From: a virus
Taxonomy: Duplodnaviria; Heunggongvirae; Uroviricota; Caudoviricetes
Reading direction: 5' to 3' (one strand)
IMG/VR virus record: IMGVR_UViG_2690316148_000009
Length of the DNA stretch: 5,206 nt
Part shown: positions 113 to 5,206 of the stretch, piece after piece
Numbering within the stretch: the stretch's first letter is position 1
How the letters are laid out: every line of letters begins with the position of its first letter
Position numbers and translations under genes: made by a program
Notes under the pieces: generated by a model
Database searches by the model: none
Told to the model about the DNA's origin: nothing
The model's input: the letters and a program-made list of their open reading frames with translations, nothing else

Positions 113-694
113 TTACCCTATAGGTGCTACTGGCCATTCAATATCCGGTGCAGTTGATGTATCAACACGGTTCAGCAACACCCGATACTTTTTCCAGGCT
201 TCCAGCAACAAGGTTTCTTTCTCCGTTGCGATCTCCAGATCCACAGCATCCTGAAGCGGCGCTATATGCTCACTGGCTACCTGCATCAGGCTGTTTTTTG
301 TTTCTTCCGCCTCCCGGATCCGGAACAGTTTTTCTGCTTCCGTATCCTTCACCCAGGCTGTGCCGTTCCACTTCTGAAACTCCCCTTCCGGGGATAACCA
401 GGTGACATTTTCCGGTAATGAGCCGAGTTCAGAAATAAATAACGCGTCGCCGGAAGCCACGTCATAAACCGTTTTACCCCGATGATCTTCAACGAGATGC
501 CACGATGACTCATCACTGTTGAAAACAGCCACGAAACCAGCCGGAATATCTGGCGGTGCAATATCGGTACTGTTTGCAGGCAGACCTGTATGAGGCGGAA
601 TATATGCGTCACCTTCACCAATAAATTCATTAGTTCCGGCCAGCAGGTTATAAATTTTTATGGTCCGTGCTTGTTCACTCATTCTGAATGCCAT
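113..694 (-). CDS. tfa: tail fiber assembly protein (lambda Tfa family chaperone)
   Basis: The 193-aa ORF begins [62 protein letters not shown]..., which I recognise as near-identical over most of its length to phage lambda Tfa (orf-194). Its ATG (694..692) overlaps the stf stop TAA (696..694) as TAATG, and a GTGAGG Shine-Dalgarno-like motif lies about 8 nt upstream. The position immediately downstream of stf is as in lambda. Confidence 0.9.
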
Positions 695-3600
695 TATGCG
701 AGCCTCACAATATAGTTAAATGCGATGTTTTTGACGGTGTTTTCCGCGTTACCAGCAGCGTTAACGGTGATGGTGTGTCCATGTGAACCAATCGCAACAG
801 AGTGCGTATGAGCACCAATACCGACAGTATGCGCGTGTGCACCCGCAGATGCTGCTGTGCCGGACAGTGAGTGTGTATGGTTTCCTTCTGAAGATGATTT
901 ACCTACCCATTGGGAGGTGCCACTGGTTAATGAGCCACTGATACCAACCTGATTAGTCCCGCTAACTTGAGTACTCCCTGCCGGAAACATTCCAGTAGGT
1001 TGACTCCCGCTATTCGTTCTGGGCCCAGTCTGACTATGTTGGTGGGCCCCAGCTGAACTTGTAGAGCCGCTCAGACTGTGCGTATGCGCCCCGGTGTTAT
1101 TCGTGGATTTAGTGCCGTAATCAAACGACGATGTGGTTTTCGTCCCCAAATCCGTACTGGATGCGCTGGCGCTGTGGGTGTGCGATTTAATGCCATCCTG
1201 TTCCTGAGACAATACGGCACGACCACTGGCGGGCTTGCCCTTAATCGTCCAGCCACGCATATCAGGGATCACGCCTGACGGATAAGCGGCTGCAAGTTTC
1301 GGGTAAGCAGATTTGTCAAAAGTCTGCCCCTGCATCAGGGCATAACCAGACGGAACGGTATCTGATGGCCACGGGATTGGTGCACCGACTGGATAAAACT
1401 CTGCAGGAGGATGAGCCGAGGTGTAAAGCTGCGCCCACGGCGACCAGTTTGCGTCGGTCGTATCCCGTCGTGAACGAATAAATGCCGGAGCATGAGCACC
1501 GCTTGTACCACTCCAGCCGATGAGTAACTCACCTTCGCCAACGGCTGTCATCCCTTTCAGGTGAATGATATTTCCATACGCTGTTGGATATCCGTTGTTA
1601 TACACCTCGTATAACTCAAGACCTGCTGCCCCCTGCGTATTGTCTGTCAGCGCGGCTACCCGACCTTTTGAAGCCAGATTAACTGATGATACTGCTGTTC
1701 CACCTGACGGTAGCGCCCCGATCTCTGATGCCGTTGGCTTATTTCTGGAGTTATAGTCCCTTCGCCAGCCAGGTGAATAATCTGTTCCGTGATTAATATA
1801 GGTAAACTGGGCGTTGGTTGTTCCGCCACCGCTGGATGTGGTCGGAGTGGTAATGCGGATCGTCATCGCTGACTTTATCCCCATTACTTCAATGACAGCT
1901 CCGGCGAGATGAATATTACCGCAGCCAGTATCAGTAATGATTTTATTATTGCCATAAGACCAGGAACCCTTGCACATCCAGTATGGATGGTTAAATGCTC
2001 CCTGAGAATCCAGCCACTCGATAAACTGTGCAGTCGTCCAGTTTCCTGTTGTTGTGCTTACTGACCCACCGAAGGCACGGCAGGCACCAATATTTTTCGT
2101 AAAGGTGTCTTTGCCAGGGATATCCGCACCGTTCTGATCTTTCTGCAGACGTTTCTCAGCATTGTCATTGGCTGCTTTTACTGCCTTTGGCGTTGCCGCC
2201 AGCGTTTCAGACGTGCTGTTGGTCGCGCTGCTTAGCTGGATTATCCCTTTCTGTGCTGTCGTTGCATCCTGTGCGGTGTATTTCCCGTTAGCCAGGTCAT
2301 ACGCGGCCTTAACGGCTTTTGGTGTTGCCGCCAGTGACTCGGAAGTGCTGTTAGTCGCACTACTGAGCTGTACTATCCCCTTTTTCGTCGTGCTCGCATC
2401 CTCAAGCGCCACGGCGGATGCAATATCCTCTGCCCGTTTTGCCGCTGTCTCAGCGCGCGTTGCTGCAGATTCCGCCGTACTTTTGCTCTGAGCTGCTGCC
2501 GTCGCACTACCAGCAGCCTCTGTCGCCTTCGTGGATGCCGTCGTGGCGCTGCCCTTCGCTGCTGACGCCTGTCTGGTCGCCTCATCTTTTGAAGCAGACG
2601 CCGATGATGCCGATGACGCCGCCGAACTGGCGGACGATGCGGCAGCCGTTTTTGAGGATTCTGCACGGGTTTCCGACGCTTTCGCGTTCGTTTCGGATGT
2701 CTTCGCTGCGGAAGCTGACCTCGCTGCTGCCGTGGCCTGCTCAGTGGCTTCGCCAGCCTTCGTTGTGGCTGTTGAAGCGGATGATGCGGCGCTTTCTGCC
2801 GATTTTCCGGCGGCGGTGGCACTGGCTGAGGCCTGCCCGGCACTTGTTGACGCGGCACTGGCAGATAATGCAGCCGCTGTTTTTGAACCTGCCGCAGCTG
2901 AGGCGCTCTGTCCCGCTGCTGTTTCAGAAGACTTAGCGTTCGTCTCGGACGTTTTTGCCGCCTTCGCGGAATTTCCTGCCGCCGTTGCCGAGGAAGCTGC
3001 ACTACTGGCACTTGATGATGCATTCGTTTCTGAAGATTTCGCTGCCTCTTTTGAGGCCGCCGCACCCCGTGCCGAGGTGGCAGCTTCTGACGCCTTCGTG
3101 GTCGCTGTGGATGCAGAAGTGGCTGCCGATTTTTGTGATGCTGCGGCATTCGTTTCTGACGTTTTCGCGGCACTGGCGCTGGTAGCTGCCGCGCTTTTTG
3201 ATGACTCTGCAGCAGCACTTTTTGCTGCTTCACGGGCCTTTGTCGATGCCGTTCCTGCGCTGGAAGACGCTGACTGAGCCGACGACGCGGCCTGTCCGGC
3301 TGACGTGCTGGCGGCACGTGCTGAGGCTGCAGCATCGGTTGCATGAGTTGCCGCCTCGCTGGCTGATTTTTTCGCGGCTGCCGTATTCTGTGCAACCGCG
3401 GAGGCGTTACGTGACACCTCTTCCACCATCTGCTCAAAGCGGCGCAGTGCCTCCGGTCGGACATCATCCTCCGTCATGGCACCGAGAAAATCATTCAGCG
3501 TACCTGGTCTGGAACCTTCATAGACGGTAATGGTCCCGGCATGTGAAGGCGGAAAACCTTCAACCAGCAGGGTGACGCTGTACTGACCATGCTCAACATC

Positions 3601-3753
3601 CATGCTGTAACGTCCGGCTTCATCCGGATTTTCAGAGGCCACCGTGTTCACCACCATCGTGCTGCTGGTTCGTCTGGCCTTCAGCACAATGGTGCAGTTC
3701 TGTACTGGTTTTCCTGTGCCATCTTTAAGCACGCCAGAAATTTTTACTGTCAT
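694..3753 (-). CDS. stf: side tail fiber protein (lambda Stf family), intact and mosaic
   Basis: The 1019-aa ORF has an N-terminus [22 protein letters not shown]... and a C-terminus ...[31 protein letters not shown] that match lambda Stf as I recall it. It contains a long Ala/Ser/Thr-rich region with reiterated KTSETNA-type motifs, a duplicated KGI(V/I)[11 protein letters not shown](S/T)[11 protein letters not shown] unit, and C-terminal GAHTHS/GNHTHS/GAHAHT/GSHGHT His-x-His repeats typical of T4 gp37-like fiber tips. A GGTGGA Shine-Dalgarno motif sits 5 nt upstream of the ATG. The gene lies between lom and tfa as in lambda. Confidence 0.9.
2164..2382. repeat. tandem direct duplication of a ~132-bp unit inside stf (second copy partial)
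   Basis: Plus-strand segments around 2171..2268 and 2303..2400 align with a 132-bp offset at high identity. They encode [29 protein letters not shown]... (Stf aa 458-501) and [29 protein letters not shown]... (aa 502-530). Confidence 0.7.
2419..3408. repeat. GC-rich low-complexity coding repeat region of stf (Ala/Ser/Thr-rich with reiterated KTSETNA-like motifs)
   Basis: Stf aa ~116-445 is dominated by A, S and T with recurring motifs ([55 protein letters not shown]). This degenerate repetition is what produces the long spurious ORFs in the other reading frames on both strands. Confidence 0.65.
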
Positions 3754-3764: not shown

Positions 3765-3800
3765 AATAAAAAAAGCCCGCAGCAGTGACGCCACGGGCTT
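3765..3800 (-). terminator. putative rho-independent terminator downstream of lom, immediately upstream of the stf RBS
   Basis: On the minus strand the sequence is AAGCCCG-(14-nt loop)-CGGGCTT, a 7-bp stem (3800..3794 paired with 3779..3773), followed by TTTTTATT (3772..3765). It lies about 105 nt after the lom stop codon. The 14-nt loop is long, so the actual structure may differ. Confidence 0.5.
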
Positions 3801-3904
3801 CAGGACAGTGTAACTTTACGTTTCCTCAAACGCAGTTCACCCCATAAGGTGGATGAACCTGCGTATCATAACAATATTTACAGAAGATAAATCGGCGTCT
3901 GTTG

Positions 3905-4504
3905 TCAGATACGGTATCCGATACCAACAATAAATGCATCCGTTCGCCAGTCACCACTACCGGAACCTTCATAAGCAAGGTCAATGGTCACGGATTCGGT
4001 CGGGTTAAACTGCACGCCAGCCCCCCACGCCAGAGACGTGTTGCTGTGGCGACCGTCATCACTTCCGGTCAGCACATCGTGCGTTTTCCCCTTGTTGTCA
4101 GTTACGCGGAGATAATCCCCGGAGAAAGTCGACACACGGCTGTAAGCCACACCCACCATCGCATACGCGCTGAACCATTCATTCACGCGTACAGACGGCC
4201 CCGCCATCACGCTGAACCAGCGGTTACGCACGGAATCTTCATGCCAGCGGGTATCGCTGTAGTGCGTTTTTTGCTCATCCTCAGCATTGGCATAACTGAA
4301 GGACGTAATCAGCCCCAGCGCGTCCGTAAACTCATAACGGTATTTCACGTTAATCCCGTTCAGATTATCGCTGCCGGGAGCGTTCGTACGGGCATGAAGA
4401 TACCCCGCGCTCAGTGTGGACTGATGTTCAGACGCCCATGCAGGCGCACCGGATACGGCCAGGCAAATGGCTGCGGACAAAATGGCTGCACAAACTTTAC
4501 GCAT
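3905..4504 (-). CDS. lom: Ail/Lom/OmpX/PagC-family outer membrane beta-barrel protein (phage moron, lysogenic conversion)
   Basis: The 199-aa ORF has a signal-peptide-like N-terminus MRKVCAAILSAAICLAVSGAPAWA followed by motifs shared with lambda Lom as I recall it (GINVKYRYE, SAYAM(V/A)GVA(Y/H)SR, AYEGSGSGDWRTD, GIGY near the C-terminus). A GAGAGG Shine-Dalgarno motif lies 5 nt upstream of the ATG. The position between J and stf is the same as lambda lom. Confidence 0.9.
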   Translation of the reverse strand: MRKVCAAILSAAICLAVSGAPAWASEHQSTLSAGYLHARTNAPGSDNLNGINVKYRYEFTDALGLITSFSYANAEDEQKTHYSDTRWHEDSVRNRWFSVMAGPSVRVNEWFSAYAMVGVAYSRVSTFSGDYLRVTDNKGKTHDVLTGSDDGRHSNTSLAWGAGVQFNPTESVTIDLAYEGSGSGDWRTDAFIVGIGYRI

Positions 4505-4525: not shown

Positions 4526-4552
4526 AATAAAAAAGGCGCCATTTCTGGCGCC
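4526..4552 (-). terminator. putative rho-independent terminator downstream of J and upstream of lom
   Basis: On the minus strand the sequence is GGCGCCA-GAAA-TGGCGCC, a perfect 7-bp GC-rich stem (4552..4546 paired with 4541..4535) with a GNRA-type tetraloop, followed immediately by TTTTTTATT (4534..4526). It begins about 20 nt after the J stop codon. Confidence 0.6.
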
Positions 4553-4571
4553 CGTATATGGGTTATAAAAT

Positions 4572-5206
<635 letters not shown>

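Follow-up and report, generated by a model that had tools for sequence, protein, structure and literature searches.

The DNA analysed here, referred to as the window, is a stretch of 5,206 nucleotides from a tailed phage (Caudoviricetes; IMG/VR record IMGVR_UViG_2690316148_000009), in which all of the genes are on the minus strand and form the distal end of the tail gene cluster of a lambda-like E. coli prophage:

113..694, minus strand, tfa, tail fibre assembly protein (ORF; Pfam PF02413, Caudo_TAP, E = 5e-44)
694..3753, minus strand, stf, side tail fibre gene of 1019 aa, which holds the repeat (ORF; Pfam; PHROG tail-fibre families)
3905-4504, minus strand, lom (Pfam Ail_Lom, E = 1e-125)
beyond 4572, minus strand, a fragment that we read, from homologous loci, as the probable end of J

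The gene order J-lom-stf-tfa, characteristic of lambda-type Stf, was recovered from the ORFs and Pfam matches, with J putative and assigned by homologous loci, and the start of tfa overlaps the stop of stf (TAATG). Two masked runs of N fall within the putative J fragment. Lambda-type Stf forms a homotrimeric fibre and requires Tfa for folding. The window Stf has 95% identity to its counterpart in phage PhiR68_2, annotated as 'side tail fiber protein', and an exact look-up of the window protein, with or without the stop codon, returned no identical entry. At 100% identity, the window is absent from complete Escherichia coli genomes, where the best match has 96.6% identity over 93% of the query. 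Strain a7 is identical to the window over positions 1950-2650, yet carries an IS3 element where the window has lom.

Pfam and PDB sequence matches indicate that Stf is a mosaic protein, with a pair of 'Pf2' phage tail fibre repeat units near its middle. The components, in order from the N-terminus, are:

aa 1-134, minus strand, N-terminal prophage tail fibre domain (PF08400, E = 4e-69)
2404..3381 (about aa 125-450), minus strand, Ala/Ser-rich low-complexity shaft of lambda type, upstream of the repeat (repeat families D1 and D2)
2269..2400 (aa 452-495), minus strand, Pf2 unit 1, a complete 44-aa unit including the linker (repeat search, Pfam, translation)
2269..2301 (aa 485-495), minus strand, inter-unit linker of 11 aa, which sets the 44-aa period and also lies between units in other enterobacterial fibres
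2158..2268 (aa 496-532), minus strand, Pf2 unit 2, core only, with the exit segment replacing the linker (repeat search, Pfam, translation)
2116..2163 (aa 531-546), minus strand, conserved exit segment of 16 aa after the last unit, common to Mu S, StfR, Turner, and PEC1012
1609..2163 (aa 531-715), minus strand, central domain homologous to the variable part of the Mu G(-) fibre protein S' (PDB 8ju3 residues 178-362, 237.9 bits)
697..1398 (aa 786-1019), minus strand, collar domain and His-rich needle tip of T4 gp37/lambda Stf type (PDB 2xgf residues 28-242, E = 1e-81; Pfam Collar)
aa 790-837, minus strand, PF07484 (Pfam profile match)

The N-terminal tail-tip anchor of lambda-type Stf is evident from both PF08400 and a match of residues 1-94 to the lambda fibre chain in PDB 9e7m (E = 7e-47). 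Within the shaft, which corresponds to the putative coiled-coil region termed 'PCoil' (PMC3368898), most of the spacings in the D1 and D2 repeat families are multiples of 21 nt. For residues 482-715 the PDB matches are the Mu fibre proteins S and S' (5yvq and 8ju3), and unit 2 aligns with residues 111-153 of Mu S, in which the counterpart of the exit segment is DNANARLAKDRNGADIP.

A direct-repeat search identified a single pair (2164-2270 and 2296-2402; 107 nt, 74% identity, start-to-start distance 132 nt), confirming the off-diagonal 132-bp self-repeat in stf and the in-frame tandem arrangement of a 44-aa unit that the original prediction had described. The motifs KGIVQLSS, from K458 (base 2382), and KGIIQLSS, from K502 (base 2250), are in frame and 44 residues apart. 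The extent that had been proposed, 2164-2382, proved slightly too short, with similarity beginning six to seven residues further upstream (DASTTKK and DATTAQK, to about 2400). The two units are identical at 30/38 residues and 81/114 bases (33/114 differ), and BLASTP of unit against unit returned 30/37 identities (E = 4e-19). This similarity is far above chance, with the best in-frame 114-nt self-match in stf reaching 82/114 compared to 55.4 +/- 1.7 (maximum, 61) for 100 codon shuffles. Tandem Repeats Finder did not report the pair at its lowest threshold, which is attributed to the presence of fewer than two full copies at 71-74% base identity.

The pair is an instance of a curated repeat family that is already known and very common. 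PF03406 (Phage_fiber_2) matches Stf twice, with a score (125.4 bits; E = 6.1e-37) well above the curated gathering cut-off of 22, and the best stretch, residues 454-494, covers profile positions 1-41 of 42. The context is that of the family, a tail fibre protein (PF08400 and Collar) with tfa directly downstream and lom and J upstream, as is the unit of approximately 40 residues in variable number (here 44 aa; one to five units in homologues). The Pf2 unit was first seen in lambda Stf and has been noted in K-12 StfR and prophage fibres (PMC3368898). The appropriate annotation is two Phage_fiber_2 repeats rather than a new duplication. Searching papers literally for the motif strings gave no hits. 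Among PDB sequences, single-sequence and profile searches found the motif in Mu S chains only, and matches to eIF2-alpha were discarded as chance (E about 1). The cryo-EM paper on Mu models only an unspecified 'N-terminus' and is silent on whether residues 111-153 are included. An AlphaFold2 monomer prediction of residues 430-552 from a 22-sequence alignment (mean pLDDT, 45.6; pTM, 0.22) was too low in confidence for structural claims.

Using a 150-nt junction probe (the 3' half of unit 1, the linker, and the 5' half of unit 2), the junction from copy 1 through the linker to copy 2 was found to be contiguous in 1933/5426 complete E. coli genomes, at up to five places per genome, and a 701-nt probe that includes the downstream Mu-S'-like segment reached a coverage of 80% or more in 674 genomes. 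The independently sequenced phages PhiR68_2, PhiR26_1, and mEp460_ev081 carry the same two-copy gene at 94-95% identity. Copy number differs amongst homologous stf genes, and the predicted length polymorphism between related prophages is borne out by the 16 lambda-type genes that were read, which carry one, two, or three units:

1 unit: lambda/HK630, K-12 Rac StfR, phage Turner, BAA-2469, and strains 639, GF75, L65, and 1506
2 units: the window, PhiR68_2, a7, PEC1012, and ETEC-2265
3 units: O157:H7 ATCC 35150 and G12

The single unit of the lambda-type HK630, at residue 361, agrees with the statement in the original prediction that the motif occurs once in lambda Stf. A seventeenth gene, the P2-H-type fibre of strain RIVM_C037794, has five units; the copy-number frequencies rest on these 17 genes (16 lambda-type and one P2-type) and on sampled rows of matching records. 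Among 77 fibre ORFs from species-representative genomes, a sample with a bias in favor of the two-copy query, one, two, three, and four units were counted in 35, 22, 14, and six ORFs, respectively, and the spacing is exactly 44 aa in 53 of the 68 adjacent unit pairs from these genomes. The window-type linker also occurs between units in fibres of Salmonella, Citrobacter, Enterobacter, Kosakonia, and Buttiauxella. Arrays of one to five Pf2 units with a rigid 44-aa period are therefore present in many enterobacterial fibre genes. Database fragments include longer arrays, and an alternative longer linker (...AGKAPSSHTHPWNQITGVP...), with a spacing of 51-57 aa, is used in some arrays. Many of the fibre proteins in the database are 'partial' and located on 200-650-bp contigs made of these repeats; short-read assemblies tend to break in Pf2 arrays, and copy number in draft genomes should be viewed with caution.

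The pair is an old duplicate, maintained by selection that acts at the level of the protein and not of the DNA, and has not been homogenized by conversion. Synonymous differences between the copies are saturated (pS, 0.74-0.78), dN is 0.09-0.14, and the longest exact in-register run shared by the copies is 11 nt. Each copy is also of a distinct type: type 1 (copy 1) is 96-100% conserved at the like position in PhiR68_2, a7, O157, and PEC1012, and type 2 (copy 2) is 97-100% conserved across the two-copy genes (PhiR68_2, a7, and PEC1012), compared to only 69-73% between copy 1 and copy 2 in two-copy genes, 68-76% when the O157 units are added to the comparison, and 71% within the window. As same-position copies are 96-100% alike and copy 1 and copy 2 only 68-76%, there is no concerted evolution of the pair. 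The locus is a slowly evolving length polymorphism between lineages and not a rapid switch.

Typing the units base by base, at positions where the copies of the window differ, revealed several recombinant units. K-12 StfR, Turner, 639, and L65 each have, as their single unit, a clean hybrid, copy-1-type to base ~42 and copy-2-type from base ~48, that runs on into the sequence following copy 2; in the single unit of GF75 the type switches slightly earlier. A crossover joining unit 1 to unit 2, or to a type-2 unit from a different gene, would be expected to yield such a hybrid. Further patches occur in copy 1 of G12 (copy-2-type at bases 29-47) and in copy 2 of ETEC-2265 (type-2 leader, type-1 core), and in the three-copy O157 gene a type-2 core precedes the linker in the middle unit, consistent with the reciprocal crossover product. 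Exchange also extends across fibre types: a block of ~390 nt (358/396 identical), in which the 30-nt windows from offset 30 to 180 all match completely, is common to the P2-type RIVM fibre (units 3-5) and the O157 lambda-type stf (units 1-3). The flanks of this block are unrelated, and, based on the unrelated upstream flank, the 5' breakpoint falls inside a unit.

In a sample of 40 evenly spread records out of 4008 matching E. coli records, the positions at which homology stops fall into three clusters: where unit 1 ends (query 342-355, KAVK/AAYD), where unit 2 ends (487-493), and just past NGADIP (534). Of these 40, 12 are single-unit alleles, shorter by 132 nt. The alleles show that copy number and downstream modules change by homologous recombination, with crossovers inside or at the ends of the units. 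Of the two routes to length change originally put forward, recombination accords with the hybrid units, whereas slippage does not fit the saturated synonymous sites, the 11-nt run, or the position-conserved copies. The two units of a single gene should seldom exchange, given that no stretch of exact identity exceeds 11 nt. Phage Rad52-like recombinases tolerate diverged homology (PMC3945230). In the stf-tfa region, however, the 12 lambda-Rac recombinants studied by De Paepe et al. revealed no hotspot (PMC3945230), such that the Pf2 unit is better described as a recurrent historical breakpoint than as a demonstrated hotspot. As to the direction of change, two units may have become one by deletion, or two copies may have been gained through the import of an array segment.

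The explanation that we favor, and consider probable as a whole, is that the locus holds an adjacent Pf2 pair in a lambda-type shaft. The pair is situated between a virion-proximal part (the N-terminal anchor and the Ala/Ser-rich shaft) and an exchangeable distal part, made up of the Mu-S'-like domain and the T4-gp37-like tip. Each unit may constitute a self-contained trimeric shaft segment (a short strand, a polar turn, and a short helix) that would add a fixed increment of length and could abut different distal domains. As a by-product, the strong conservation of the unit would provide a patch of homology where heterologous fibre genes can recombine, and crossovers out of register would add or remove units. 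The pair marks a boundary at which the distal receptor-binding parts of enterobacterial fibres naturally exchange, and it is at that same boundary that engineered lambda fibre chimeras have been joined (PMC11338833). A working engineered lambda-P2 fibre retains lambda Stf residues 1-393 (PMC11338833), which, from the position computed here, end in ...KAVKVVMDETNR, directly after the Pf2 unit. The hybrid units offer a concrete illustration, at the level of sequence, of how the length and modules of a fibre change, and introduce no new principle.

How the pair came to be in this gene is a separate question, and it is plausible, if somewhat short of probable, that it arose by a module swap, in which a one-unit lambda-type stf recombined in or just after its unit with an array-bearing P2/Mu-type fibre gene and gained the linker, unit 2, and the distal domains. 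Unit 2 and the downstream sequence align to Mu S/S', with unit 1 and the upstream sequence being lambda-type; P2-H-type fibres have the same linker and arrays of two to five units; and the RIVM/O157 block demonstrates an array segment common to a P2-type fibre and a lambda-type stf. However, no donor with an identical linker, unit 2, and Mu-S'-like domain was identified outside lambda-type stf, and, as the position of the linker makes it part of unit 1, a minimum of one additional crossover has to be invoked. Such a swap differs from the favored explanation only in the origin of the pair and is compatible with it. A stronger version, in which the pair is a mere accidental junction of lambda and Mu modules, was downgraded to this question of origin, as the linker and the 44-aa period recur in many unrelated arrays.

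Two other proposals assign the units more than a structural role. The Pf2 motif is nearly unchanged from E. coli to fibres of Paenibacillus and Heyndrickxia and is always at the boundary of conserved and exchangeable fibre parts, and so might be more than a passive spacer: a universal cassette for trimer registration or a hinge, with a conserved partner or activity, whose copy number (one to five, in rigid steps of 44 aa) would be tuned to the thickness of the host surface layer and aid host range. We regard this as unlikely. It is very unlikely that the units are kept alike as DNA recombination sites, either as dedicated 'linkers' through which modules are exchanged or as sites acted on by a fibre-associated invertase. 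The clustering of breakpoints at the units is in keeping with such sites, and a pin-type invertase gene is located just after tfa in relatives (PhiR68_2, Turner, Rac, and PEC1012), with the window ending 112 nt beyond tfa. An approximate search of both strands of the window, allowing at most two mismatches, for AAACCNNGGTTT, the crossover core of the 26-bp site of the Gin/Cin/Pin systems, produced no match. Literature cited in PMC3945230 proposes invertase-driven exchange of fibre segments. Nevertheless, saturated synonymous sites together with a conserved protein point to selection on the protein and make selection for DNA homology as such unlikely, and the motif persists in Paenibacillus and Heyndrickxia, where the DNA context is unrelated.

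A recent tandem duplication, generated by replication slippage or unequal sister-strand exchange and creating a fast, unstable, length-variable site, is highly improbable. The head-to-tail arrangement, the exact 132-nt period, and the variation in copy number amongst homologues are what such an event would leave, but the DNA identity of the copies is just 71-74%, their synonymous sites are saturated, no exact run exceeds 11 nt, their copy-specific differences are conserved across many genomes and phages, and Tandem Repeats Finder did not score the pair. Neither the near-identical copies nor the long exact identity of slippage-type or hypervariable contingency repeats is present. That the pair is an assembly artefact, a false expansion of a single unit, is almost certainly wrong, for despite the tendency of short-read assemblies to break here (partial fibre proteins on short contigs), a false expansion would give near-identical copies, and these differ at 33 of 114 bases and recur as the same two-copy sequence in the three independently sequenced phages and the 1933 complete genomes.

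Amongst known fibres, lambda Stf and K-12 Rac StfR resemble the window in the N-terminal domain, the Ala/Ser-rich shaft, the His-rich tip, and the order J-lom-stf-tfa, and differ in having one unit each compared to two, the StfR unit being the copy-1/copy-2 hybrid. The segment between the units and the tip, which is Mu-S'-like in the window, is unrelated in lambda, StfR, and Turner. In Mu S (PDB 5yvq, 8ju3, and 9ki1), residues 111-161 comprise one Pf2 unit followed by DNAxxRLxKDxNGADIP, as for unit 2 of the window, and for Mu S' residues 178-362 of 8ju3 are homologous to window Stf 531-715. Mu is a myovirus with a one-unit, baseplate-attached fibre and an invertible G segment, while the approximate search of the window found no crossover core. 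The P2 gpH-type fibres of Enterobacterales prophages have the same 44-aa period and linker and hold array blocks in common with lambda-type stf; they differ in the N-terminal attachment domain, usually have two to five units, and in some cases use the longer linker AGKAPSSHTHPWNQITGVP. With respect to the family itself (Pfam PF03406; InterPro IPR005068, 'Pf2', phage tail fibre repeat), there is no essential difference, as both units match the model end to end and lie in tandem as the family name implies, with lambda itself having one unit and the window gene two.

Matches to structure-chain sequences resolved the side tail fibre encoded by stf (window 697-3753 (-)) into a mosaic of three parts:

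Stf part 1: N-terminus and Ala/Ser shaft, lambda-type
Stf part 2: central domain, matching residues 178-362 (variable part) of 8ju3, the Mu G(-) fibre S'
Stf part 3: His-rich tip, T4-gp37/lambda-type, matching 2xgf

The identity between the central domain and the Mu S' variable part is roughly 80%, as estimated by eye. With a Mu-S'-like centre and a gp37-type tip, the Stf has two potential receptor-contacting domains arranged in series. Within the tip, a segment at about 900-1010 (-) of the window (Stf amino acids about 905-950) is flanked by conserved HxH motifs, and both phage PhiR68_2, which is elsewhere 95% identical, and phage Turner carry unrelated sequence in its place. This HxH-flanked segment is probably a cassette for a receptor-specificity loop.

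Terminator-like hairpins, both strong and with a T run, occur on either side of the neighbouring gene lom:

3772-3801 (-), 13 pairs, between lom and stf
4534-4553 (-), 8 pairs, between the J fragment (sequence beyond 4572, read as the end of J from homologous loci) and lom

The first of these ends 19 nt ahead of the stf start, and together the predicted hairpins would bracket lom and set it apart as its own unit. The presumed C-terminal part of J includes two masked runs of N (4695-4744 and 4954-5049). In E. coli a7 (locus L004), whose stf has 100% identity with the window across positions 1950-2650, an IS3 element just upstream of stf takes the place of lom and cuts J short. On the other side of the fibre genes, a pin-type serine invertase gene directly follows tfa in PhiR68_2, Turner, K-12 Rac, and PEC1012 (L001, L002, L005, and L008); the window, with 112 nt beyond tfa, stops short of this position.

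Single Phage_fiber_2 (Pf2) repeat units, almost unchanged, are also present in fibre ORFs of the Gram-positive Heyndrickxia and Paenibacillus (L060, L061, L066, and L069), and this cross-phylum conservation is unusually strong for a fibre segment. A Desulfosporosinus sp. contig (L087; coverage about 1.9) looks like lambda DNA contamination, because the lambda Stf for which it codes includes the lambda PaPa frameshift (...MDETNRKAHWTVRH). Two loci from MAGs labelled Bacillota and Sporobacter (L009 and L023), the former 97% identical to the repeat region of the window, look like enterobacterial prophage contigs placed in Firmicutes MAGs by binning. Most of the database relatives (proteins P0001-P0120) are 'partial' and derive from contigs 200-650 bp long, made up almost wholly of Pf2 arrays. 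The Pf2 repeats are evidently break points of short-read assemblies, so the number of Pf2 copies in a draft genome cannot be relied on. An ORF of 109 amino acids (2162-2491 (+)) runs antisense across both Pf2 units; its matches are phrog_24241 (E = 1e-20) and phrog_26766 (E = 6e-17), two PHROG families without a known function, both of which probably derive from spurious antisense gene calls across Pf2 repeats.

The Ala/Ser-rich shaft (2404-3381 (-)) contains several families of diverged direct repeats, with spacings that are mostly multiples of 21 nt, equivalent to heptads, and is probably a second length-variable part of the fibre, more so than the Pf2 pair. A shaft with heptad spacing agrees with the putative coiled coil described as 'PCoil', the length of which varies in sevens (PMC3368898).
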